This document shows positions 2,876-57,712 of a stretch of 64,000 nucleotides of DNA, in pieces. The DNA is from Anaerolineae bacterium. GTDB lineage: Bacteria; Chloroflexota; Anaerolineae; Fen-1058. The stretch lies in the NCBI GenBank assembly GCA_035292585.1, contig DATDPU010000033.1:9691-73690 (forward strand). The letters are read 5' to 3'. Position numbers and translations under genes: made by a program. A model generated the notes under the pieces. The model ran no database searches. It saw nothing but the letters and a program-made list of their open reading frames with translations, and was not told the origin of the DNA. Within the stretch, counting starts at the first letter, position 1, and each line of letters starts with the position of its first letter.

Positions 2876-3634
2876 TCAATCTTCGACGATATATTCAAAC
2901 GTCAGCACTGCCAGCCCGCCTAAGGCCAGGTCGTAGGCCAGCAGCAGCCCCAGCCAGTTGCCCCACAACTCGAAGGGCGCATCGTCCAGCGCGCCCGCCG
3001 TGCACTTCACCGCCGCCAGCAGCGCGGGCAGCGCCACCGGCAGCATCAGGATCGGCAGCAGCACATCGCGCAGGCGCGTGTTGGCGGCCATCGTCGCCAG
3101 CAATGTGCCCACGCTGGCGAAGCCAATCGTCCCCAACACAACCGAGACCAGGATCATCGGCTTGATGAACGGCAGGTTGAAAAAGGCGACGAACAGCGGC
3201 AGGACAATCGCCTCGATTGCCGACATGAAGATGAAATTGCCCAGCGCCTTGCCGATGAAGATCGCGCTGCGATCGATCGGCGCCAAGCGCAACCCGTCGA
3301 AACTGCCCCGGTCGAACTCCGCCGCCAGCGAGCGGTTCAGCCCGAGCATGCCGGCGAAGGTGATGACGACCCACAGCACGCCCGGCGCAGCCGTCGCCGC
3401 CGAGCGCGCCACGCGCAGGTCGAATGCGAACGCGAACACGAAGATCACCAGCACCGCGAACGCGCCCATCGAGCTGAGCATGTCGCGGCTGCGAATCTCC
3501 GTCGTCAAGTCTTTCGCGACGATCGCGAAGATTTTGCGCAGATAGCTGCGGACCCCGCCCGGCGCCGCCGCAAACCGCGCCGGCGCCGGCGTCGTCAGCG
3601 TTTCCTCAGACACATTGACCACGCGATCACCCAT
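2876..3634 (-). CDS. ccmB: heme exporter permease CcmB
   Basis: ABC-2-type CcmB membrane protein pattern, about 220 aa and 6 TM helices. Positioned between ccmA and ccmC. Confidence 0.8.
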   Translation of the reverse strand: MGDRVVNVSEETLTTPAPARFAAAPGGVRSYLRKIFAIVAKDLTTEIRSRDMLSSMGAFAVLVIFVFAFAFDLRVARSAATAAPGVLWVVITFAGMLGLNRSLAAEFDRGSFDGLRLAPIDRSAIFIGKALGNFIFMSAIEAIVLPLFVAFFNLPFIKPMILVSVVLGTIGFASVGTLLATMAANTRLRDVLLPILMLPVALPALLAAVKCTAGALDDAPFELWGNWLGLLLAYDLALGGLAVLTFEYIVED

Positions 3635-4519: not shown

Positions 4520-6553
4520 TTACCGCATCGCGCGCAGCAACTTCGCCTTCAACGCCTCGCGCCGCTTGCGGTATTCGGCTTCGGGAAGATCGCGCGCTTC
4601 AAAGGCATCATCCAGCGCGGCGATTTGATCCAGCAGTTGCTCGCGCCCGGCCAGGGCCGTGCGGGCCTGCTTGCGCAGAGTCGAGCGCGGCGGCGGCGGT
4701 GTCTTGCGCGGCCGCGTGCGCCACACGCCGTAGCCGACCGCGGCCACGCCGACGACGAGCAACGCGATCCCGCCGACCAGCTTGGCGTCGATGCCGGCGT
4801 TGGCGCGCGCCAGTCTGAACGTCAGCGGCTGACCGGCCGGCAGCGCCTGCCCTGAGAAGATTTCATACGCCGCGCCTTCGAAGCTGCGCACGCCCTGATT
4901 CGTCAGCTGGTCGCTTGACGCTTGCAGGTCGCCGGCCTGCACGAGCAGGTTGATCGAGTTCATCGGGTAGGTCGGGATCCGGCTGAGCGACGCCTCGGCG
5001 TCGAGCGGCAGCTGGTAAGCGATGACGAACTGCGCCGCTTCGTCGCCGGGCAGCACCGCCTCGCGGTAATCGAACCCATCCGGCGTTTGCACAAACACGC
5101 CCGGCGTGTCGTTCATGTCCCGGAAAGCCGTCGCGCCGGCCGGGAGCGTGAAGTGCAGCGTCGCGCCGCTCGTGTTCGCCACCGTGCGATCGCCCAGGTT
5201 GCTCAACACGTAAATCTCGGTGACGTCGAGCGCGCCGCTGTTCTGCGCCGCGATCAGGTGCAGGGTCTTGATCCGGATCGCGTCGGTGGCCGTGGTCTGC
5301 GCGTAGACCGGGAGCGGTAGATCGAGTGTGTTGGACGTCTCATCCAGGGTGACCGCCTCGCTCCAGTAGGTTACATCTTGAGGCGTGACGTTGACCGCCA
5401 CCACATCGCCGGGTTGCGCTTTCAGATCGGGCGCCTGGAAACGTCCCTCGGCGTCGGTTTTCAGCGTCTGTGTGATGGGTGCGTGATCCAGGCCGCCGGG
5501 GAAGTGGTAAAACGTGACGTCGATATTGACCGGCGGCGGCGAACCGGCGGTGCCGCTGACCAACGACCCATTGATCGTGTAGGAGGCATCTCCCGATGCC
5601 GACCCATCTCCCGATGCCGACCCATCTCCCGATGCCGACGTGTCTGGCGGCGGGGTAGTGGCGTCGGAGCCGGGCGTGACCGGCGGCGGCTCGGCGACGA
5701 CCGCGCTCGTGTCATACGTGAAGCTGCGCAGGTAGTCGATCACGGCGCTGCGCTCGAAGCTGTTCAGCTTGCCGCTGAAGGACGGCACGTGCGTGCTTTG
5801 CAGCGCGTTATCCCACTCGCCCGGCGCGACATCGCGGTAGGCGTCCAGCGTGCTCAAGTCAGGTACGTTGCCTTCGGCCTGGGACCCATTGCCTGCGCCG
5901 GTTTCGCCGTGACATTGCACGCAGCGCTCGGCGTAGATCGCCTGCCCGGTTGTCAGTTTCGATTCGGGCGAGCCGAGCGACCAGACGTACGCCATCACGT
6001 CCCACCGATCGTCGACGACCAGCGATCCGCTGAAGGGCGGCATGCCGCGCTCGAGCCGGCCGGCCGTGATCACCCCGAACCACTCGGCGGGCGTCGAGGC
6101 GCGGGCGACGCTATCGGCGGTGAGATCCGCCGGGGCCGCGCCGAACTGGGCCAGGATATCGGCCGCTTTGTCGCCGTCGCCCGCGCCGCTCGCGCCGTGG
6201 CAGCTGACGCACTTCTCGGCGTAGAGCGCCGCGCCGTTGGCGACCGACGGCTTGCGCGCGGGCAACTCCAATGCGACGTCGGTTTGGGGCGGCAGCGGCG
6301 TAAGAATGGGGGCGTTGCCGCGCGAGGGCGGCGGGGCCGACAGCGCGCAGCCGGAAAGAATGAGGCTCAGTAGGAGGCATCTCCAGATGCCGACGAATCT
6401 CCAGATGCCGACGACGAGTCGTCGTCTGGAGACGACTCCTACGGTTCCCTCTCTTGATGGCCGAAGGTCTCCCGACCGAGGCCTGCCGCAGACCTGGGTT
6501 CTGCTCTTCGGCGCGGTCGGGAGACCCGCGCCGATCGACAGTAATCTCATCAT
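4520..6553 (-). CDS. membrane-anchored diheme c-type cytochrome with large beta-rich C-terminal region
   Basis: Two CxxCH motifs (CVSCHG, CVQCHG), an SASGDG x3 repeat linker, a about 300-aa domain, a C-terminal TM helix and a charged coiled tail. The start is uncertain: ATG at 6553 overlaps the upstream stop as ATGA, and the track ORF extends to 6628 through a tandem repeat. Confidence 0.6.
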   Translation of the reverse strand: MMRLLSIGAGLPTAPKSRTQVCGRPRSGDLRPSREGTVGVVSRRRLVVGIWRFVGIWRCLLLSLILSGCALSAPPPSRGNAPILTPLPPQTDVALELPARKPSVANGAALYAEKCVSCHGASGAGDGDKAADILAQFGAAPADLTADSVARASTPAEWFGVITAGRLERGMPPFSGSLVVDDRWDVMAYVWSLGSPESKLTTGQAIYAERCVQCHGETGAGNGSQAEGNVPDLSTLDAYRDVAPGEWDNALQSTHVPSFSGKLNSFERSAVIDYLRSFTYDTSAVVAEPPPVTPGSDATTPPPDTSASGDGSASGDGSASGDASYTINGSLVSGTAGSPPPVNIDVTFYHFPGGLDHAPITQTLKTDAEGRFQAPDLKAQPGDVVAVNVTPQDVTYWSEAVTLDETSNTLDLPLPVYAQTTATDAIRIKTLHLIAAQNSGALDVTEIYVLSNLGDRTVANTSGATLHFTLPAGATAFRDMNDTPGVFVQTPDGFDYREAVLPGDEAAQFVIAYQLPLDAEASLSRIPTYPMNSINLLVQAGDLQASSDQLTNQGVRSFEGAAYEIFSGQALPAGQPLTFRLARANAGIDAKLVGGIALLVVGVAAVGYGVWRTRPRKTPPPPRSTLRKQARTALAGREQLLDQIAALDDAFEARDLPEAEYRKRREALKAKLLRAMR
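5586..5641. repeat. 18-bp tandem repeat CATCTCCCGATGCCGACC x3 inside the cytochrome coding region
   Basis: Direct tandem repeat seen in the sequence, encoding SASGDG repeats on the minus strand. Same motif family as the repeats at 6374-6426 and 28817-28990. Confidence 0.8.
6374..6426. repeat. tandem repeat ATCTCCAGATGCCGACGA x2 plus 17-bp perfect palindrome GACGACGAGTCGTCGTC
   Basis: Seen directly in the sequence. It shares the 21-mer GAGGCATCTCCAGATGCCGAC with position 28817. Confidence 0.75.
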
Positions 6554-7651: not shown

Positions 7652-7770
7652 GAATGTAGAATGTAGAATGTAGAATGTAGAATGTAGAATGTAGAATGTG
7701 GAATGTGGAATGTGGAATGTGGAAAAGCAGTCATTTCATCATTCGGCATTCTGCCTTCTACATTTCAGAG
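7652..7770. repeat. heptanucleotide tandem array (GAATGTA x6, GAATGTG x4) followed by a partial inverted copy
   Basis: Direct repeats seen in the sequence, in the ccmH-ccmG intergenic region. GCATTCTGCCTTCTACATTTC downstream is the inverted complement, giving hairpin potential. Confidence 0.8.
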
Positions 7771-11181: not shown

Positions 11182-11538
11182 CTATTCGTACTTCAGCGCT
11201 TGCATCGGGTTCAACGTCGCCGCGCGCAGCGCCGGACAGCCCCGACAGGACGCCGATGAACGCGGCGCCTGACCGGCCAGGAAGGCCAGCGCGATGACGT
11301 TGATGAGCTGGCCGGCCACCCAGTCCAACACCACGCCGCCGATCCCGCCGACCGACCCGATGCCGGCCGCCTCGCCCAGGAACACCGACAACACGTCACG
11401 GTTGGTCGCGCCGAGCGCCTTCGTCACCCCGATCTCGCGCGTGCGCTCCAGCACCGCTATCGCCATCGTGTTGGCGATGCCGATCGCCGCGACGAGCAGC
11501 GCGATCGCGCCCATCCCGCCGAAGATGACCTGCAACAC
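11182..11538 (-). pseudogene. C-terminal fragment of an FtsX-family (MacB/LolE-like) ABC permease
   Basis: Only the last about 115 aa of an FtsX domain are present (IANTMAIAVLERTREIGVTKALGA...). There is no upstream N-terminal or TM1 region, and the fragment begins exactly at the 33-bp palindromic element. Confidence 0.5.
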
Positions 11539-11540
11539 TC

Positions 11541-11573
11541 AGAAACCTGGTTTCTTAAAGAAACCAGGTTTCT
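11541..11573. repeat. 33-bp double-palindrome element AGAAACCTGGTTTCT-TAA-AGAAACCAGGTTTCT (copy 2)
   Basis: Seen in the sequence. It is translated in several spurious ORFs as KPGFFKKPGF. Confidence 0.8.
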
Positions 11574-11993
11574 CCGTGTTACCTTTCGGCCCGAACGGCT
11601 CGCCGGGATCGGGGCTGAGCACGGGCGTCGGGCGCACGCTATCGAGTCCGATCAGTCCGAGGAAGGCGCGCGCCAGCATATCGAAAAACGATTCCTCCGT
11701 CTGCGGCGGGCTGCCCTCACCGCCGGGTTGGTTCGGATCGATCGGCGGCTCGGGCTGCGGCAGCACTTCGATCTCGAGCGTGTCGCTGATCAGCTTCGAC
11801 TCGTTGAAGTCGTCCACGTAGTTGACGAGAATCGTCAACGTGAGCGGGCCGGGTTCGAGCGGCGGGGCTGGACTCAATGTGGTTTCAACAAGCGGTATCG
11901 GATGTCACTCAGGCTCAAACGAAAACGATCATAAGCGGAGAGAGGTTCCCCGTCAACTTGTGACGGACGGGTGGGGTTGCCCGGATGCATCCA

Positions 11994-12024
11994 GAAACCA
12001 GGTTTCTTGACGAAATGGTTTCTC
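11994..12024. repeat. degenerate copy of the 33-bp double-palindrome element (copy 3)
   Basis: AGAAACCAGGTTTCT-TGA-CGAAATGGTTTCT, lying just 3' of the L,D-transpeptidase gene. Confidence 0.6.
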
Positions 12025-13945: not shown

Positions 13946-14210
13946 GGTCTGCTCCTCACCTGCAGATAGGCAGATTATACGCCGGTACGCGGTAAACGCG
14001 CGTAGGAAACAGCGTGTGCACGGAAAACCTGTCAGACGGCAAGACCTGCGAGGTTTTGTTTAGAGCGCGTTACGGCGAAAGTGCCCGCATAAACCTCGCA
14101 GGTCTAATGAGCTGACAACGTTTGCGTGCGCAGGAAATAGCTGCGCGCTTGCCCGTCGATATGTTGTGCGCTACAATCGGCTCGCGCCACTGACGGCACA
14201 AGGAGCCAGC

Positions 14211-21788: not shown

Positions 21789-21795
21789 AGGCCAT

Positions 21796-21863
21796 ACCTG
21801 CTACCTGTTTACTTATTTACCAGTATGCAGGTAGACAGGTAGACAAGTAGCAAGTAACAGGCA
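21796..21863. repeat. hairpin-forming heptamer array (CTACCTG direct copies facing CAGGTAG copies)
   Basis: Inverted repeat seen in the sequence, in the 76-nt gap between the OB-fold gene and the next gene. Confidence 0.7.
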
Positions 21864-21864
21864 G

Positions 21865-23184
21865 ATGGACACACTCATCCTGATCGGCCTGGCGGTGCTG
21901 GGCGCGGTGGCGTCAGCGGGGCTGGCGCTGATCCCGGCGTTGCACATCTACAACGTCGCCGGGCTGCTGATCCTCGTCGCCGGTTCGCTGTCATCTATCC
22001 TCAACCTCGATCAACTAGCGCTGCTGTTGCTCGGCATGGTCGTCGGCTACTCGATGCTGAACACGATCCCGGCGACATTCCTGGCCGCGCCGGACGAGTC
22101 GGCGGCGTTCATCGTGCTGCCCGCGCAGAAGTGGCTGCTGCAGCGGCGCGGTTACGAAGCGGTCGTCCTCACCGGCGTCGGCGGGTTAGGCGGGCTGGCG
22201 GTTGTCGTCGCGCTCAGCCCGTTTGCCGGCGAAGCCGCGCGCATCCTGCAAGCGATCGTCGCGCCGCACCTCGGCTGGATCCTGCTGGCCGTCAGCGCCT
22301 TCATGCTGATGTCGGAGTGGCCCAAAGCGGGCGAGCGCGGCCGGACGCGCATCGGGCGTTTCCTCGCCGCGTGGACCGGGTTGGGCGCCGGGATTCTCAC
22401 CTTCTTTTTGTCCGGCCTGCTCGGCTTCATCATCATCTATCGCAGCGTCGTGCCGACCGAGGTCGCGTTTCAGAATTTGCTGCCGGCGTTCCTCGGCTTG
22501 TTTGCCGTGCCCATGGTCCTGGCGAACTTCATCATGGGCACGCGCATTCCTGAGCAATACCTGTCCACCTCGCTCGACGTGTCTCCGTCCCACTTGCTGC
22601 GCGGCATCGCTTCGGGCACGCTAGGCGGGTTGTTCGCCGCGTTCTTCCCGGTGGTGACCGGCGGCGTCGGTGGGTTCCTCGCCGCGCATGCGACGGCGCA
22701 ACGCGACGACCGCACGTTCATTCTCTCGCAAGGCGCTTCGAAATCGGTGTACTACGTCGGCGGCTTTCTGTTGTTCTTCGTGCCGGGCCTGCACCTGGCG
22801 CGCGGCGGCATGGCGGCGATGCTCAGCACGATTTACACGCCGGCGACGCCGTTGCTGTACTTTACCGCCGTGGCGGCCATCGCGGTGAGCGGGGCGGTTT
22901 CGTTCTTGCTGTTGATCGCGTTGAGCCGCCTGGCGATCCGCGTGGTCGAGCGCGTTCATTACCGCGTGATTAACGCCGCGACGCTGGCGATCCTGGTCAC
23001 GCTGGTGGCTGCGCTGACTGGTCCCGGCGGGTTGCTGATCATGCTGGCCGCAACGGGCATCGGCCTGATCCCGACGCTGTTCGGCTCGCGGCGCATGAAC
23101 TGCCTGGGGGTGTTGCTGCTCCCGATCACACTCAACCTGCTGGGACTGGGGCCGTCGGTGGCAAGGCTGCTGGGACTGATCTGA
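21865..23184 (+). CDS. polytopic membrane protein, possibly TctA/DUF112-family transporter subunit (tentative)
   Basis: About 12 predicted TM helices and Gly-rich helices. The family call is weak and is pattern resemblance only. Confidence 0.4.
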   Translation: MDTLILIGLAVLGAVASAGLALIPALHIYNVAGLLILVAGSLSSILNLDQLALLLLGMVVGYSMLNTIPATFLAAPDESAAFIVLPAQKWLLQRRGYEAVVLTGVGGLGGLAVVVALSPFAGEAARILQAIVAPHLGWILLAVSAFMLMSEWPKAGERGRTRIGRFLAAWTGLGAGILTFFLSGLLGFIIIYRSVVPTEVAFQNLLPAFLGLFAVPMVLANFIMGTRIPEQYLSTSLDVSPSHLLRGIASGTLGGLFAAFFPVVTGGVGGFLAAHATAQRDDRTFILSQGASKSVYYVGGFLLFFVPGLHLARGGMAAMLSTIYTPATPLLYFTAVAAIAVSGAVSFLLLIALSRLAIRVVERVHYRVINAATLAILVTLVAALTGPGGLLIMLAATGIGLIPTLFGSRRMNCLGVLLLPITLNLLGLGPSVARLLGLI

Positions 23185-23249
23185 ATGTAGAATGAAGAAT
23201 GAGGAATGAGGAATGAAGAATGAGGAATGAGGAATGCAGAATGCAGAAA
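23183..23249. repeat. heptamer tandem array GAATGNA x9, upstream of the four-helix-bundle gene
   Basis: Seen in the sequence. It has the same GAATGTA unit as the array at 7652. Confidence 0.8.
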
Positions 23250-23630
23250 GGGGGAAATGTGGCTAGCAAAGCGCCGCGCAATATTCAAGAGCGAACATTT
23301 GAATTCGGCCTCCGGATTGTGAGACTGGTCGATCGACTGCCGAGGACGCTATCGGCGACAGAAATCGGACGGCAGATGTTGCGCTCCGGCACATCGGTCG
23401 GCGCGAATATGGAGGAGGCGAAGGGCGCGGAAAGTCGACGTGACTTCATCCACAAGACCAGTACGGCATACAAAGAGGCGCGCGAAACTTTTTATTGGTT
23501 GAGCCTGATCGATGCTGCCGTTCTTTGTCGTGACCAAGAAGTTCTTTCGCTTCGTCAAGAATGCGATGAAGTTATCCGTATCCTCCACACCATCTTACGC
23601 AAGGCACGCTCATCACAGCAAGCGGCGTAA
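23241..23630 (+). CDS. four-helix-bundle protein (TIGR02436-type, so-called 23S rRNA intervening-sequence protein family)
   Basis: About 125 aa with the characteristic FEFGLRIVRL...LPR...IGRQMLRSGTSVGANMEEA...EA..YWL helical pattern. The start is uncertain because the track ORF begins inside the heptamer array. Confidence 0.7.
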   Translation: MQKGGNVASKAPRNIQERTFEFGLRIVRLVDRLPRTLSATEIGRQMLRSGTSVGANMEEAKGAESRRDFIHKTSTAYKEARETFYWLSLIDAAVLCRDQEVLSLRQECDEVIRILHTILRKARSSQQAA

Positions 23631-23633
23631 TTT

Positions 23634-23685
23634 TCTTCATTCTCAATTCTTCATTCTCAATTCTTAATTCTACATTCTGCATTGA
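23634..23685. repeat. inverted heptamer array (reverse complement of GAATGAA/GAATTGA units) downstream of the four-helix-bundle gene
   Basis: The reverse complement reads GAATGTA GAATTAA GAATTGA GAATGAA GAATTGA GAATGAA. It forms a long inverted repeat with 23183-23249 across the gene. Confidence 0.8.
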
Positions 23686-23686
23686 T

Positions 23687-24682
23687 ATGAAGGGCATCAC
23701 GCATTTCGTCAGCGGCATCGCCGCCGCCACTTTCATTCCGGGCGTGGTCGAACAGGCCGCGGCCGGGTCACTGCTGCCGGTGCTGGGCGGCGTGTTCGGC
23801 CTGTTGCCCGACACGCTCGATTTCAAGTTCGCGCGCTACTTCGAACGCGCCGAGCAGATCGACCCGGACCCGCGTCACCCCGACCCGCAACTGATCGCCG
23901 ACCGGCTGGCCGAGGCGATCGATCGGGCCTACAAGCGCAATCAGCCCGTCCGCGTGCGGCTGCACACGATGAAGCTGGGCGTCGATCTATGGCGGCAGTA
24001 TACCGTCCGCTTCGACGCCGAGAACGGCGAGATCGCCGTGCGCATCGGGCCGACGGTGAACACCTCGCAGCTGGCGTATGCCGGTTCGGAAATCGAAGGA
24101 CTGAAGGAGGCGCGCGCGAAAGTCGAAGCGCCGTTGGTGTATACCTATGGCGAGGAGATGAAGATCGATATCTTCGGCGGGCCGTCGTTCGCCTTCAAGC
24201 GCGTCAAGGACAAGGTCGAGATTCAATTTCTGCCATGGCATCGATCGTGGTCGCACTCGCTCGTGTTGGCGGCGTTCCTCGGGCTGGCGACCGGGCTGCT
24301 GCTCAATGCCACACTCGGCTGGGTGATCTTCGCCGGCATGGCCGTGCACATTCTCGAAGATCAGCTCGGCTACATGGGCAGCAACCTGTTTTGGCCGCTC
24401 ACCGAGAATCGGGCCGGCGGGCTGCGGTTGATTCACTCCGGCGACCCGATCCCCAATTTCGTCACGGTCTGGACGGCGCTGGTACTGATCCTCTTCAACC
24501 TCGATCGGTTTTCAGGCGAGCCGCCGTTCTTCCAGCCGGTAGTCTTTTTGACCTTTGCCCTGGCTGTGCCTGTCGGCGGGCTGTTGTCGTTCTACTTCAT
24601 GGGCAAGCGGCGCGGCTACCAAACGATCGAGGCGGCGAAACAGGCGGACGTGATCCAGGAGCTCGTAGAGACGGAGGTATAG
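23687..24682 (+). CDS. membrane protein, possible DUF457-like membrane-bound metal-dependent hydrolase (tentative)
   Basis: N-terminal MKGITHFVSG and a His-rich C-terminal TM region (HSLVLAA...HILEDQLGYMGSNLFWPL). Weak resemblance only. Confidence 0.35.
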   Translation: MKGITHFVSGIAAATFIPGVVEQAAAGSLLPVLGGVFGLLPDTLDFKFARYFERAEQIDPDPRHPDPQLIADRLAEAIDRAYKRNQPVRVRLHTMKLGVDLWRQYTVRFDAENGEIAVRIGPTVNTSQLAYAGSEIEGLKEARAKVEAPLVYTYGEEMKIDIFGGPSFAFKRVKDKVEIQFLPWHRSWSHSLVLAAFLGLATGLLLNATLGWVIFAGMAVHILEDQLGYMGSNLFWPLTENRAGGLRLIHSGDPIPNFVTVWTALVLILFNLDRFSGEPPFFQPVVFLTFALAVPVGGLLSFYFMGKRRGYQTIEAAKQADVIQELVETEV

Positions 24683-24785
24683 CGGTCAACGGACTTGCCA
24701 ACGGACAACCCTCGCGCGCAGCGCGGGGGTTGTCCGCTTAAGAGTCCGTTGACGGCTCTATCCGCTTTTCTGGAGAAGGCAACGC

Positions 24786-27920: not shown

Positions 27921-27986
27921 GAGTTAGAGTAAGCAGTTAGAGTGAGAGTCTCTAACTCCAAACTCTAACTCTAAACTCCAACTCAC
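27921..27986. repeat. hairpin-forming heptamer array (AGTTAGAG units facing CTCTAACT units)
   Basis: Seen in the sequence, between the ABC-2 permease stop and the AOR upstream region. Confidence 0.7.
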
Positions 27987-28805
27987 ACTTCCTCAGCGAA
28001 CCGTCTCGCATACCGATCGAACACCGCGTACCCGATCACCAGCATCGCCAGCGCCGTGATCGCCGTGCGCAGGAAGAAGTCCGCGCCGATGGTGTGCCCC
28101 CAGTACAACACATCGCGATACGAGGAAATGATCGAGGCCATCGGGTTGACGATGTACACCAGCCGGCGCAGGTCGAACGCAGCGCCGAGCAGGGTCGCCG
28201 TTTGCGGCACAGTCTCGATCGGGTACACGATCGGCGTGAGGAAGAACCACGCCAGCATCACGACTTCCATGATGATCTGGGTATCGCGATAGAACACGTT
28301 GACGGTAGACAAGATCAGCCCGATGCCGACGGTGAAGATCACCTGCACCAGCAAAACCACCGGCAGCCAGATGATCAGCCACACTTGCCCGGTGAGCGGC
28401 ACACCCGATAGCCAGGCCAGCGCGAAGAAGACCGGCAGCGCGATCATGAAGTTGATCATGTTCGCGATCACCACGGCGACCGGCAGGGCCGCGCGCGGGA
28501 AGTACACTTTCTTGATCAGATGCGCGTTGTTGACGATGCTGCCCGTCGCGCCGATGACCGAGGCCGAGAAGAAGTTCCAGGCCAGGATGCCGATCAACAC
28601 CGAGACGTGATAGGCGGGCTGGCGGTTCTGCGCCGCCATCACCGTGAACACGATCGTCAACACCAACATCATCAGCAGCGGGTTAAGCCAGGACCAGGCG
28701 ATGCCCAAAGCCGAATTCTTATAGCGCACCTTCAGGTCGCGCTCGACCAGGTTGCGAATCAGCTCGCGGTAACTCCACAGCTCGCGCAGCCTAGCCCACA
28801 TCATG
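27983..28805 (-). CDS. ABC-2 type polysaccharide/teichoic-acid exporter permease (Wzm/TagG/KpsM-like)
   Basis: Start MMWARLRELWSYRELIRNLVERDLKVRYKNSALG is the canonical ABC-2 N-terminus, followed by 6 TM helices. The track ORF upstream of 28805 is translation of the 15-bp repeat. No ATPase gene is adjacent. Confidence 0.8.
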
Positions 28806-30218
28806 CCCCCTCGTAGGAGGCATCTCCAGATGCCGACCCTCCGGATGCCGACCCTCCGGATGCCGACCCTCCAGATGCCGATCCTCCAGATGCCGACCCT
28901 CCGGATGCCAACCCTCCAGATGCCGACCCTCCGGATGCCGACTCTCCAGATGCCGACTCTCCAGGTGCCGACTCTCCAGATGCCGACCGAACCCAAGTTC
29001 CTGCAGCGCCTGCGTGCGCTCGCCGGCGCGGCGCAGGCGCACGGCGTCATACACGGCCACGATGCGGCGAGCGGCATCCTCCCACGCGAACATCGCCTGG
29101 GCGCGCGCCCGCAAGCCGGCCGCGGCGCACGCGCGCGCCGACGGAGTGTTCAAGGCGTACAGCAGTTGCTCCGCCAGCGCAGCCGCATCACCCGGTCGCG
29201 CGTAAAAACCGTAATCGTGCAGATATTCGCGATTGATAGGCGTATTGAACGCGATCGTGGGCAGTCCGGTTGCCATATAGTTCAAGACCTTGCCGTTCGC
29301 CTCGGTGGCCGACAGCTTGGGCGCCACGGCCACGTCGCCCAGCCGCAGGTAGCGCGGCGCGTCTTCGTACAACACGCGACCGACGAACGTAGTGTGCGCG
29401 CTCAGACCGCGCGCTTCCGCCAGCGCTCGATACAGCGGCATGCCGGGGTAACCCATGATTAGAAAGTGCGTGTTGGGGCGCTGCCGGATCACTTGCTCGG
29501 CCGCTTCGATCAACAGGTCCGTCCCCTGGTACGGCGCGAGCAGGCCCAGGTACACCACCAGCTCGCGGTCAGCCGGCACGCCCAGATACGAGCGGATCGC
29601 GCTCAATTCGATACGGTCGGCTTCGGTGCGCGGGCGGAAGAAAGCCGTGTCCACGCAATCGGGCAACGGGATCACCCGTTCCGGATCGACGCCGAACGTG
29701 TCGCGCAGCAGAGCAACCGCTGTGCGCGAGCTGGTCAGGATCGCGCGCGGCCGATGATCGATGCGGCGCTCCAGCCGGCGCACGATCGCGTGAGCCGGGC
29801 CGGCCGGGTTCAGGAAGTGATGATCGATCATTTCGCCGGTCAGGCTGCCTTGAAAATCGAACACGAGCGGCGCGCGACTGATCCAGCTAAGCGCCGAACC
29901 GATGAGCGCGCCTTCGTGCAGGTGCGCGTGAATGATGTGCGGCTTGAAACGCAGCGCCGTCTTGAGCGCGGTCCAGGACAACAATACATCGAAGGCGATC
30001 TTATGCCGCGAGGAGCCGACTTCGTAGTCGGCGTGCCACGGCGTCGGCGCGGTGCGGATGATTTCCAGATCGGGCAGGCTCCGGCCTTTGTAATAGGTCA
30101 CGATCTGCACGCGCTGGCCGTGCGCTTGCAAGGTGCGCGCTTCTTCAAGAATTCGAACGTGGCACCCGTAGTCGGAAAAGAACGACGTGGGCGCGATCAT
30201 GAGGATCCGGTAGGGCAT
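28791..30218 (-). CDS. glycosyltransferase family 4 (GT-B, group 1)
   Basis: Start MPYRILMIAPTSFF (ATG 30218). GT4 pattern with a C-terminal EX7E-like region. The last about 60 codons of the ORF are the 15-bp tandem repeat, so the true C-terminus is uncertain. Confidence 0.75.
   Translation of the reverse strand: MPYRILMIAPTSFFSDYGCHVRILEEARTLQAHGQRVQIVTYYKGRSLPDLEIIRTAPTPWHADYEVGSSRHKIAFDVLLSWTALKTALRFKPHIIHAHLHEGALIGSALSWISRAPLVFDFQGSLTGEMIDHHFLNPAGPAHAIVRRLERRIDHRPRAILTSSRTAVALLRDTFGVDPERVIPLPDCVDTAFFRPRTEADRIELSAIRSYLGVPADRELVVYLGLLAPYQGTDLLIEAAEQVIRQRPNTHFLIMGYPGMPLYRALAEARGLSAHTTFVGRVLYEDAPRYLRLGDVAVAPKLSATEANGKVLNYMATGLPTIAFNTPINREYLHDYGFYARPGDAAALAEQLLYALNTPSARACAAAGLRARAQAMFAWEDAARRIVAVYDAVRLRRAGERTQALQELGFGRHLESRHLESRHLESRHPEGRHLEGWHPEGRHLEDRHLEGRHPEGRHPEGRHLEMPPTRGHDVG
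28817..28990. repeat. 15-bp tandem repeat (ATGCCGACCCTCCAG-type, about 11 copies)
   Basis: Seen in the sequence. It is translatable in frame on both strands: RHLES/RHPEG repeats at the C-terminus of the GT4 ORF, and VGIWR repeats upstream of the permease. Confidence 0.85.
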
Positions 30219-30235
30219 GGTGGTCACGGAGAGAA

Positions 30236-30350
30236 TGGGTAGATTGGTAGTTGGTAGGTTGGTAGTAGGTAGACAGGTATCCAAGTAACCAATTACCCAT
30301 CTACCAATTCCCCTGCTACCTGCTTACCTGCTACCTGCTACCTGTTTACG
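30236..30350. repeat. hairpin-forming heptamer arrays (GGTAGNT units facing CTACCTG units)
   Basis: Seen in the sequence between the GT4 start and the GIY-YIG stop. The last GIY-YIG codons (KQVAGSR) are encoded by the array. Confidence 0.75.
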
Positions 30351-30617
30351 TTTTACGTTCTTCTTCTTTCGCGTTACGGGCGGCTGCGCCAGCGCCAGCT
30401 TCTTCACGCGCGGCAGCCGCTTGATCGCCAACTCGCGTTTCAGGGCCGCGCCGCGCGATTCGCACTCCTCGACGTAAACCAGCTTCACCGGGCTGTGCAG
30501 GCGGGTGTACCGTGCGCCGCGCCCGGCGTTGTGGGCGGCAACCCGTTTGGAAACATCGACCGCCCAGCCGGTGTACAACGATCCATCGACGCACTCGACG
30601 ATGTAAACGAAAGGCAT
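30324..30617 (-). CDS. GIY-YIG nuclease-domain protein (UPF0213-like)
   Basis: FVYIVECVDGSLYTGWAVDVSKRVAAHN GIY-YIG motif, with a basic C-terminal tail. Confidence 0.8.
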   Translation of the reverse strand: MPFVYIVECVDGSLYTGWAVDVSKRVAAHNAGRGARYTRLHSPVKLVYVEECESRGAALKRELAIKRLPRVKKLALAQPPVTRKKKNVKRKQVAGSR

Positions 30618-30655
30618 GGTAGTGAGATGGTTGGTTAGTTGGATAGTTGGTTAGG
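30618..30655. repeat. heptamer-like array GGTTAGTTGGATAGTTGGTTAGG
   Basis: Shares TTGGATAGTTGG with the array at 44603-44633. Confidence 0.6.
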
Positions 30656-44565: not shown

Positions 44566-44629
44566 AACCAACCAACCAACTAGCCAACTAACCAACGAAC
44601 ACTTGTTGGTTGGATAGTTGGATCGTTGG

Positions 44630-44633
<4 letters not shown>
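44566..44633. repeat. hairpin-forming heptamer array (CAACCAA units facing TTGGTTG units)
   Basis: Inverted repeat seen between the hutU stop and the roadblock start. It shares TTGGATAGTTGG with 30637-30648. Confidence 0.75.
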
Positions 44634-53074: not shown

Positions 53075-53451
53075 CCCGCGTCCGAAAAAGTCTTGTCCAC
53101 GAAGCCACACGAAGGGACACGAAAAGTAAACCTATTCGCTGATGCATTGAACACGCGCACCGTAGTGTAGGGCCTTGCGCCTTTGAACAAAGACATGCTG
53201 GCCTCAGTTGGCGCTACATTGAACAAGCGCGCCGTAGTATAGGGCCTTGTGCCCGTTGCACGCTCACGACACCACACGGGCGTTCGAACATGAGCCAACC
53301 TTTTTTCGTGTGACTTCGTGTATCATCGTGGATGAGCTATCCGTTTCCGCGTGAATCCCGGTTTCCGGTTATGGAATCGGGATTCTCATTTTACGGACTT
53401 CGGCCGATTATGCTATAGTAGTTCCACCACATATTTCGAGTTGGAGCGTGG

Positions 53452-57493: not shown

Positions 57494-57712
57494 ACGGCAA
57501 GTTTTTCAATAGATCCTTCCCGCCTGTTGCCCAGTAAAATAGCGTGCTACCCCGGTCACTCAAGCCGAACACTTATACCTGTTCACTATGTAAACTGGTT
57601 TTTCGGCGGGTCTAAGCCAAATCGCGGCAAAGAGTTGGCTTGCCTGAATCAAAAGAGAATAAGTACATTCTGCATTTGATTTTGTTACCTGTCTGCGATA
57701 AAGTGGACTGAG

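Follow-up and report, generated by a model that had tools for sequence, protein, structure and literature searches.

Neither a function nor a way of spreading has been assigned to the intervening sequences (IVSs) of bacterial rRNA genes, or to the conserved open reading frame (ORF) that they carry, although both have been known since the early 1990s. An element of similar build lies between two protein-coding genes in a stretch of 64,000 nt (the window) from the metagenome-assembled genome of an Anaerolineae bacterium of the Chloroflexota (assembly GCA_035292585.1, contig DATDPU010000033.1, positions 9,691 to 73,690), where a gene for a four-helix-bundle protein of the IVS family fills the loop between a tandem array of GAATGNA heptamers and the inverse of that array. 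This element, the two arrays and the bundle gene together, is referred to below as the cassette.

In Coxiella burnetii the IVS holds the S23p ORF in the loop of a 28 bp terminal stem; immediately upstream of that ORF are GACAGAT heptamers, two or three of them depending on the strain, and RNase III cleaves the stem at the first of these repeats (PMC4990558). In rRNA genes of the candidate phyla radiation there are non-intron insertions that carry 23S_rRNA_IVP or GIY-YIG genes (bioRxiv 10.1101/2024.02.27.582315). Genes of the 23S_rRNA_IVP family have also been reported inside cas operons, for instance between cmr3 and cmr2 (PMC3936711), and the family is named in a figure legend of a large discovery screen for clustered regularly interspaced short palindromic repeat (CRISPR) systems (PMC10910872).

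Intergenic arrays of heptamers are over-represented, without explanation, in Cyanobacteria, Beggiatoaceae, Bacteroidetes and Xanthomonas (PMC4679880, PMC4692102, bioRxiv 10.1101/2022.06.06.494920). They are also present in Nostoc, and in Xanthomonas there are 70-75 convergent, that is inverted, array pairs per genome (PMC4692102). No link between heptamer arrays and free-standing bundle genes was found in open-access papers and preprints, an earlier description elsewhere being possible, and the cross-phylum rule of bracketing by heptamer arrays that is described here appears to be new.

A bundle gene in the loop of inverted heptamer arrays

The cassette occupies the whole of the gap between the stop codon of a gene for a TctA-family membrane protein and the start codon of a gene for a YdjM-like membrane protein (Table 1). 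The 5' array starts within the TGA stop (23182-23184) of the TctA gene and has TGA and ATG in all three frames. The 3' array is its reverse complement and begins 2 nt past the stop of the bundle gene; Tandem Repeats Finder places it at 23633-23683, with 7.3 copies at period 7, or 86% matches at period 14, so that it ends 3 nt short of the YdjM-like ATG (23687). As an inverted repeat, the arms at 23179-23234 and 23633-23688 are 56 nt long, 77% complementary and 398 nt apart, which is the longest inverted repeat in the window at arm spacings of up to 700 nt, and the 5' arm also pairs with the 3' arm at further, shifted positions. The two arms have expanded independently, with a 21 nt higher-order repeat in the left arm and a 14 nt one in the right.

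The sequence GAATGNAGAATGNA, allowing at most one mismatch, occurs 18 times in the window, where shuffled sequence would give 0.26, and chance is therefore excluded as the source of these matches. They are confined to both arms of the cassette, an array without a bundle gene at 7652, and one two-unit site at 57664. The last of these (AAATGCAGAATGTA, 57664-57677, minus strand) is a lone match in an AT-rich spacer, and may be chance or a remnant.

The protein matches PF05635 with an E value of 1e-20 (74.3 bits, cutoff 33.8) and TIGR02436, "four helix bundle protein", with an E value of 4e-27 (94.6 bits, cutoff 24). The GTG at 23259 is the likely start; its position and the G-rich motif that precedes it are common to the orthologues in L085, L087 and L086, which are among the loci from relatives described below. 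The AlphaFold2 monomer model has a mean predicted local distance difference test score of 93.2, with helices at residues 9-25, 31-55, 60-88 and 93-122. The best Foldseek match is BT_0352 (2RLD, which contains five chains; template modelling (TM) scores 0.80/0.90), followed by Xcc0516 (2GSC; 0.77/0.84) and, more distantly, by Avd, the protein of diversity-generating retroelements (DGRs) (4DWL, 0.71/0.80; also 8UB7/8UB8), to which sequence identity is about 15%. The family motif has been reported as GxxRxxxSxxxNxxE (PMC3936711), and RxxxSxxxNxxE is present here as R-SGT-S-VGA-N-ME-E in LRSGTSVGANMEE; in an alignment of 28 close homologues the S, the N and the last E never vary, whereas a few sequences have another residue in place of the R. 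Profile score, fold and motif all place the bundle protein in PF05635/TIGR02436. The original prediction, made from the sequence of the window, is borne out on this anatomy: it had described heptamer arrays on both sides (GAATGNA x9.4 and the inverse x7.3 by Tandem Repeats Finder), a gene of about 125 aa (123 aa from the GTG) and membership of the IVS protein family (PF05635, TIGR02436 and Foldseek).

A scan for σ70 promoters and intrinsic terminators gave no match within the cassette, which is therefore presumably transcribed with the host operon. No RNA family, rRNA included, was found by a permissive local Rfam search or in the whole window at gathering thresholds, the lone match being to CRISPR-DR12, below threshold (E 0.65) and within the TctA gene. 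As to features of transposable elements, inverted arms are present, the genes called up to about 10 kb away include none with a transposase or reverse transcriptase family on record, and the only candidate for a target-site duplication is TGA/ATGA, which is confounded with the stop and start codons of the host genes.

Comparison with described elements

The cassette shares its cargo protein family with the rRNA IVSs of Leptospira, Coxiella, Xanthomonas and Brucella. In both, terminal inverted repeats make a stem whose loop is taken up by the ORF, and both can be regarded as possibly mobile with no known mechanism. The rRNA elements sit in a helix of 23S (or 16S) rRNA, whereas the cassette sits between the TctA and YdjM-like genes; because its flanks are protein genes and the window has no rRNA match, it is not an rRNA IVS. 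Its arms, unlike those of an rRNA IVS, are long arrays of 7-9 units that pair imperfectly. The ORF of the Coxiella IVS is decaying and probably untranslated, while that of the cassette has a good Shine-Dalgarno sequence and is under strong purifying selection.

The cyanobacterial short tandemly repeated repetitive (STRR) sequences, the TAACTGA arrays of Beggiatoaceae and the inverted GGGAATC pairs of Xanthomonas are like the cassette in their 7 nt tandem units, their place at gene junctions and near start codons, their stops in three frames, their convergent pairs capable of forming stem-loops, and their variation in length from relative to relative. These published arrays are without genes and unlinked to bundle genes, whereas the arrays of the cassette enclose one, in an association that is statistical across phyla.

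Avd has a homologous fold and is a pentameric, nucleic-acid-binding cofactor; the cassette differs from a DGR in having neither visible template or variable repeats nor, among the genes called up to about 10 kb away, a reverse transcriptase. Homing endonuclease genes (GIY-YIG, PD-(D/E)XK) resemble the cassette in being small and selfish-looking and in coming and going at precise sites, but the bundle protein lacks a nuclease motif and any demonstrated cleavage of a target, and its gene lies in neither an intron nor an intein. The repeats of CRISPR arrays are 24-48 nt long and separated by unique spacers, in contrast to the contiguous 7 nt units here.

Genes that encode transposases associated with repetitive extragenic palindromic sequences (REPs), or RAYTs, provide a further comparison, as do the paired REPs known as REPINs. 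There, as here, a gene has a short repeat on either side in inverted orientation, the repeat sequence is specific to the lineage, and the location is at operon junctions. The RAYT protein is an HUH/Y1 transposase and the cassette protein a four-helix bundle; a REP is a single palindrome and the repeats of the cassette are tandem heptamer arrays, and for these there is no evidence of mobilization in trans. REPs are, moreover, dispersed over the genome in intergenic hairpins that lack the gene; as regards dispersal of this type, the 64 kb contain one further hairpin of the same unit, and other sites with the unit of the locus lie near the gene in 11-16 of 50 loci, where a control gives 4.3%. The cassette is thus neither a DGR (no reverse transcriptase), nor a RAYT/REP element (wrong protein), nor a CRISPR array.

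The same layout around homologues

A scan of one genome per species gave 592 confirmed loci with a homologue. The best 80 were used, with 77 in the flank statistics; these are the top-scoring relatives of one subfamily, rather than a random sample of PF05635, and come from Chloroflexota, Cyanobacteria, Bacteroidota, Verrucomicrobiota, Planctomycetota, Acidobacteriota and several other phyla. When the 150 nt before each gene were scored against the 150 nt after it for inverted repeats, the median was 37 for the 77 homologues and 16 for 534 position-shifted controls, and the threshold of at least 24 was reached by 79% and 1.5% respectively (p 8e-33). Inverted flanks are present in 70% of the homologues compared with 4.7% of 322 other ORFs from the same loci (p 3e-24); the calling of these control ORFs was crude, and several of the control "positives" are themselves additional bundle gene paralogues or a GxxExxY gene.

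The best period in the flanks is 7 for 58 of 77 loci upstream and 56 of 77 downstream, against 56 of 548 controls. The units include GAATTTA, GAATGAT, CAATGAA, GACAATT, GCGAATT and GGATGAA, and the arms have a fixed polarity, the A-rich one being upstream: in coding-strand sense, GAAT is read in the upstream arm of 17 loci and ATTC in that of 1, AATG in 17 and CATT in 2, AGAA in 12 and TTCT in 0. The fit between genes is close, with median gaps of 7.5 nt from the upstream same-strand ORF to the 5' arm, 8 nt from the bundle stop to the 3' arm, and 16 nt from the end of the 3' arm to the next ORF. The arms and the gene behave as one unit. Neighbours are co-directional on both sides in 45 of 71 loci and opposed on both in 5, which is as for ordinary genes and was not used as evidence.

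Scans of viral contigs gave one bundle gene locus and three GxxExxY loci, with inverted arrays in 1 of 1 and 1 of 3, too few for statistics; in the sole bundle gene copy the inverted arms, with four matching heptamer units apiece, lie directly against the ATG and the TAA. Homologues are also present in 31 plasmid records, mostly of cyanobacterial megaplasmids. In one of these, plasmid pANACY.01 of Anabaena cylindrica PCC 7122 (L138; NC_019772.1 154103-157426), a gene annotated as "four helix bundle protein" separates cas2 from cas1, is read from the opposite strand and has GTAAAAA / TTTTTAC heptamer arrays on both sides.

The TctA-YdjM junction in relatives

Forty-five metagenomic loci with a YdjM-like protein were retrieved, those with 78-92% YdjM identity being taken as close relatives; metagenomic contigs of this kind may be chimeric. 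At the junction, these loci have the intact cassette, truncated or decayed forms of it, a different gene in inverted repeats of its own, hairpins without any gene, a short spacer, or nothing at all (Table 1). In the more distant L103, L108 and L123 the TctA and YdjM genes are 0-10 nt apart. In a tree of the YdjM protein (137 residues) these states are interleaved and the empty L089 is basal; the cassette is thus an insertion that has later decayed or been lost or replaced in different lineages. The empty ATGA overlap is the ancestral state of the junction. The number of units in the 5' and 3' arms is 9/7 in the window, 4/4, 4/4 and 5/5 in orthologues, and 7/4 in the truncated L086. Three other contigs with an identical YdjM-like protein have a cassette that is 100% identical, and so carry no information on the empty site.

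L106 had been a candidate for a second bundle gene lineage (47% identity) at this junction and was dropped when the ORF was read and found to be a fusion. Its ORF of 439 aa (L106 251-1570), directly upstream of the YdjM-like gene, consists of unrelated, oxidoreductase-like sequence fused in frame to the C-terminal half of the cassette bundle protein, and is either an assembly chimera or a rearrangement.

The original prediction of a small mobile or excisable cassette holds in so far as the gene and its arms are one unit in ~70-80% of the 77 homologues and relatives differ in whether the junction has the cassette, a decayed form of it, another filling or none, but loss at the DNA level is seen only on an evolutionary scale. 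The search for an empty site that it had proposed found both gene-less hairpins of other units (L084, L097) and the hairpin-free ATGA junction (L089).

Selection and base composition

In the four intact orthologous cassettes the ratio of nonsynonymous to synonymous substitution (dN/dS) of the bundle gene is 0.035-0.10, and synonymous sites are saturated (proportion of synonymous differences, pS, 0.60-0.75), from which it follows that the protein is maintained and that the orthologous cassettes are old. Despite this saturation, the GAATGNA unit has been kept in the noncoding arms. In the window the bundle gene has a G+C content at third codon positions (GC3) of 0.565, where its neighbours have 0.84-0.88; the orthologues have 0.70-0.73 and their host genes 0.80-0.97. 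Overall G+C is below that of the surroundings in 55 of 59 loci, and GxxExxY genes are offset likewise. The lower G+C and GC3 fit foreign or horizontally moving DNA.

Predicted folding of the transcript

The minimum free energy of the sense-strand RNA of the cassette is -181.6 kcal/mol (z -3.6), in a fold that includes the long-range stem. There are 46 pairs between the arms, of which the outermost is 23182-23685, so that at the foot of the predicted stem the stop codon of one host gene is brought to the start codon of the other. The duplex of the two arms has an energy of -55.4 kcal/mol, compared with -25.5 +/- 4.3 for shuffled arms. Three orthologous cassettes have 23-26 inter-arm pairs each, and in these as in the window the outermost pair is on one side at the stop codon of the host or no more than ~5 nt away, and on the other falls 1-12 nt short of the host start. 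At 23-46 bp, the stem predicted by these folds would be of a length compatible with RNase III.

Hairpins without a bundle gene

The original prediction had pointed to an array at 7652, upstream of ccmG, as the hint of a former or alternative insertion site. The array is indeed present, is of the GAATGNA type and has no bundle gene, but it is itself part of a hairpin, which had been overlooked: the array at 7652-7724 (10.4 copies, 98% matches) is followed by an inverse arm at 7735-7764 (30 nt, 80%). Read on the minus strand, this hairpin has five GAATGNN-type units, a loop of ~9-17 nt, and NNCATTC x10, which is the polarity of the cassette, some 15.5 kb away. As a former insertion site it finds no support in the relatives, since the bundle gene is absent at ccmH-ccmG in all four for which there is DNA, and L132 (73% CcmG identity) keeps a gene-less GAATGAA/GAATGAG ... 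NNCATTC hairpin with a 20 nt loop at this junction; other ccm relatives have ccmH-ccmG hairpins of different units. The gene-less hairpin at 7652 is therefore conserved in its own right. It is possible that it is an alternative target site.

Hairpins without a gene are also found at no fewer than five other gene junctions in the window, built from inverted arrays of short period (~6-8 nt) with a different unit in each, and at one more junction there is a gene-less hairpin with 42 nt arms (Table 1). In relatives, the corresponding spacers hold different arrays (for example L087 1100-1225 and L092 180-250). A tract at 402-469 was dropped as a candidate hairpin, its two arrays not being complementary. 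Among the homologous loci, 12-mers of the arms recur elsewhere within the same ~6 kb locus in 16 of 50 cases, or 11 of 50 without adjacent sites, with 4.3% in a cross-locus control; L025 and L066 have, one gene away, arrays of the same unit as their own arms.

In L023 (Promineifilaceae), one complete hairpin (TTCAACAATTCA... loop AATTAAAAAAATTG ...TGAATTGTTGAA) occurs four times in consecutive spacers (190-285, 1245-1320, 2885-2966 and 3348-3425), with two of the copies flanking the bundle gene; it looks like a dispersed REP-like family. Repeats of other kinds in the window include tandem repeats of 15-18 nt with a common core (CTCCAGATGCCGACC x11 at 28824-28988, CATCTCCCGATGCCGACC x2.9 at 5587-5639 and ATCTCCAGATGCCGACGA x2 at 6379-6414) and two palindrome copies on AGAAACCTGGTTTCT (11534-11580 and 11980-12015), ~400 nt apart.

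Other genes in hairpin loops

A small GIY-YIG gene in the window also lies within inverted short-period arrays. Its arms, 30278-30306 and 30617-30645, are 29 nt long, 76% complementary and 310 nt apart, with units of the ACCAAnTA type and TnGTTGGT, and one of the separate gene-less hairpins (30233-30320) adjoins it. Its GC3 of 0.84 is host-like, unlike that of the bundle gene. Genes of the GxxExxY family (TIGR04256, PDDEXK_3) are in inverted repeats in 4 of 6 examples (L088, L085, L055, L136), with CAC(G/A)(G/A)A(G/T)-like units. In L088 and L090 the GxxExxY cassette is at the very TctA-YdjM junction that holds the bundle gene in the window, and in L085 it is one junction earlier, where the window has only the gene-less hairpin 21795-21856. 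The bracketing, in what is a small sample, suggests that hairpin-loop cassettes are a single class in which the small cargo gene can be one of a few.

At 53096-53332 in the window, CACGAAG-type inverted arms (30 nt, 83%) enclose a 177 nt loop with two ~60 nt direct repeats, and this may be a decayed cassette. The CACGAAG unit is also that of the gene-less hairpin at the TctA-YdjM junction of L097, and it flanks the GxxExxY gene of L136.

Table 1. Features of the window and of homologous loci. Coordinates without an L number refer to the window.
Feature	Location	Strand	Details
TctA-family membrane protein gene (upstream host gene)	21865..23184	+	Pfam PF01970, E 7e-29
5' arm of cassette	23183..23248	+	GAATGNA tandem heptamer array x9.4, period 7, 89% matches (Tandem Repeats Finder)
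Shine-Dalgarno-like AGGGGG	23249..23254	+	Just inside the loop, 4 nt ahead of the GTG start; read from the sequence
Four-helix-bundle gene	23259..23630	+	PF05635 23S_rRNA_IVP / TIGR02436; 123 aa; GTG start, TAA stop 23628-23630
3' arm of cassette	23633..23685	+	Inverse heptamer array, TNCATTC-type, x7.3
YdjM-like membrane protein gene (downstream host gene)	23687..24682	+	Pfam PF04307, E 4.6e-17
Gene-less hairpin, GAATGNA family	7652..7764	-	In the operon ccmF-ccmH-(hairpin)-ccmG
Gene-less hairpin at gene junction	14015-14132		42 nt arms
Gene-less hairpin at gene junction	21795-21856		Unit ACCTGNT
Gene-less hairpin at gene junction	24667-24771		Unit CAACGGA
Gene-less hairpin at gene junction	27921-27989		Unit GAGTTAG
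Gene-less hairpin at gene junction	30233-30320		Unit GGTAGNT
Gene-less hairpin at gene junction	44566-44631		Unit CAACCAA
Small GIY-YIG gene in inverted short-period arrays	30278..30645	-	Gene 30360-30617; Pfam PF01541, E 4.4e-16
TctA-YdjM junction, intact cassette	L085, L087, L091, L109		GAATGNA-type arms of 4-5 units
TctA-YdjM junction, truncated bundle gene	L086		Truncated at residue 68, running directly into the 3' arm
TctA-YdjM junction, decayed cassette remnant	L102		
TctA-YdjM junction, GxxExxY / PDDEXK_3 gene	L088		138 aa, in its own inverted repeats; TIGR04256, E 5e-34
TctA-YdjM junction, GxxExxY / PDDEXK_3 gene, internally deleted copy	L090		
TctA-YdjM junction, gene-less hairpins	L084, L097		Other units
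TctA-YdjM junction, spacer	L092		53 nt
TctA-YdjM junction, nothing	L089		TctA stop and YdjM start overlap as ATGA
GxxExxY cassette	L088 101-640		
GxxExxY cassette	L090 1270-1600		
GxxExxY cassette	L085 740-1215		
GxxExxY cassette	L055 5660-6120		
GxxExxY cassette	L136 1350-1980		

Interpretation

The explanation favoured here, with modest confidence, is that this is an IVS-type hairpin-loop gene cassette in an mRNA operon, in which arms and gene are one unit, the arms pair in the RNA, and the stem is cut by RNase III. The unit consists, in order, of the 5' heptamer array, the Shine-Dalgarno sequence, the four-helix-bundle ORF and the inverse heptamer array. It would presumably be co-transcribed with the host operon, the arrays pairing into an imperfect stem of 23-46 bp that RNase III probably cuts, by analogy with the rRNA IVSs, including that of Coxiella. 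Cleavage would release a short, monocistronic mRNA for the bundle protein, with its Shine-Dalgarno sequence and start just inside the loop, and would limit the damage to the host operon. Since the foot of the stem joins the host stop to the host start, it is proposed that insertion is tolerated at junctions of translationally coupled genes. The arms share a 7 nt unit and can therefore pair in several alignments, so that pairing probably survives the frequent gain and loss of units. In the course of evolution the cassette is gained, decays and is lost, and its place at the junction can be taken by a GxxExxY / PD-(D/E)XK cassette of like build. As a guess at its route of spread, filled and empty hairpins that belong to one unit family may recombine, their arms providing the homology, and nuclease cargos could promote spread by cutting empty hairpins.

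Several observations weigh against this explanation. The antisense strand folds almost as well as the sense strand, and a test for G-U bias among mismatches of the arms was null (sense 90, antisense 79, p 0.44), so that the arms may have a role at the DNA level; in the same mismatches transversions (258) exceed transitions (169), and this excess and the null G-U result together do not separate selection on the stem as RNA from selection on it as DNA. RNA processing at this cassette is argued from analogy with rRNA IVSs. Clear inverted flanks are absent from 20-30% of the homologues; copies lacking arrays were what the original prediction had looked to for its refutation, and only this minority is of that kind. 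Some copies lie between two complete hairpins rather than in the loop of one (L023 and the Anabaena plasmid). Gene-less hairpins of the same unit are conserved alone, and the arrays may thus function apart from the cassette. The protein has been strongly conserved at this site through a long divergence, which is more in keeping with a gene that is of use than with one that is purely selfish.

It is less likely, and on the whole improbable, that the bundle protein and the repeats are a cognate pair, in which an Avd-like pentameric bundle protein binds, regulates or helps to propagate heptamer arrays of its own unit. The bundle gene would then lie inside one member of a genome-wide hairpin family, with the arrays as its substrate and not mere packaging. 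This logic has parallels in the RAYT transposase gene between inverted REPs and in the ring protein TRAP, which binds tandem RNA repeats. The hairpin at 7652, of the same unit and polarity as the cassette and conserved without a gene in a relative at 73% CcmG identity, would be expected of such a pair, as would the own-unit 12-mers near the gene in 16 (11) of 50 loci and the arrays of L023, L025 and L066. The unit also seems to track the cargo, being (G/C)AAT(G/T)NN around bundle genes and CAC(G/A)(G/A)A(G/T)-like around GxxExxY genes, and it is kept where synonymous sites are saturated; co-inheritance of gene and arms, however, could by itself account for the match in unit. There is a fold match to Avd, part of the DGR ribonucleoprotein (8UB7/8UB8, 4DWL), but the bundle protein has no nuclease or transposase motif, and free-standing members have no known binding or catalytic activity. 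Groups with heptamer arrays, the Cyanobacteria and Bacteroidetes (PMC4679880), are well represented among the sampled bundle loci, and 2GSC is from Xanthomonas. Within the window, on the other hand, most gene-less hairpins have other units, and there is only one bundle gene in 64 kb.

An explanation that is similarly hard to favour reverses the order of events. Heptamer hairpins would be ordinary host features at the operon junctions of the lineage, such as REP-like stabilizers of mRNA or products of polymerase slippage, and small selfish genes would have been captured or tolerated in their loops, the arms being no part of the mobile unit. The window does have at least 6 gene-less short-period hairpins at junctions, including that at 7653-7764, the same spacers in relatives hold different arrays, and the two arms of the cassette have expanded independently, with 21 nt and 14 nt repeats. 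An intergenic excess of heptamers is known in bacteria, with the 70-75 paired arrays per genome of Xanthomonas (PMC4692102). Against this, bracketing persists where other spacers have no arrays (70% of homologues compared with 4.7% of ORFs in the same loci), the viral-contig copy is bracketed too, the polarity of the arms relative to the gene is fixed, and the unit is the same across orthologous cassettes. The loops hold only three small cargo families, not random genes, and the TctA-YdjM junctions of outgroups are without a hairpin.

That a small gene has come by chance to lie between two unrelated AT-rich repeat tracts is extremely improbable, for although repeat tracts are common in the window, the arms share a unit found at only one other array in the 64 kb (18 matches where 0.26 are expected) and form its longest inverted repeat, and the layout recurs in most homologues, in several phyla (p ~1e-24 to 1e-33).

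Implications

A wider form of the cognate pairing, in which each bundle lineage recognizes, and perhaps spreads or regulates, hairpins of its own unit, with the gene inside one of them and with GxxExxY and GIY-YIG sisters that have units of their own, is more doubtful still. If it were true, it would explain both the role of the IVS protein and the excess of heptamers (STRR, TAACTGA, GGGAATC) at gene junctions. Screens for CRISPR association that are based on repeats could perhaps pick up the arrays of bundle genes in cas loci.

In several phyla, members of the family outside rRNA are usually found in the architecture of the IVS, an ORF in the loop of an inverted repeat with heptamer periodicity. 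At an orthologous operon junction this architecture is polymorphic, and two nuclease-family cargos have it too. These three results, the context, the polymorphism and the sister cargos, make the questions of what the IVS protein does and why heptamers are in excess open to experiment.

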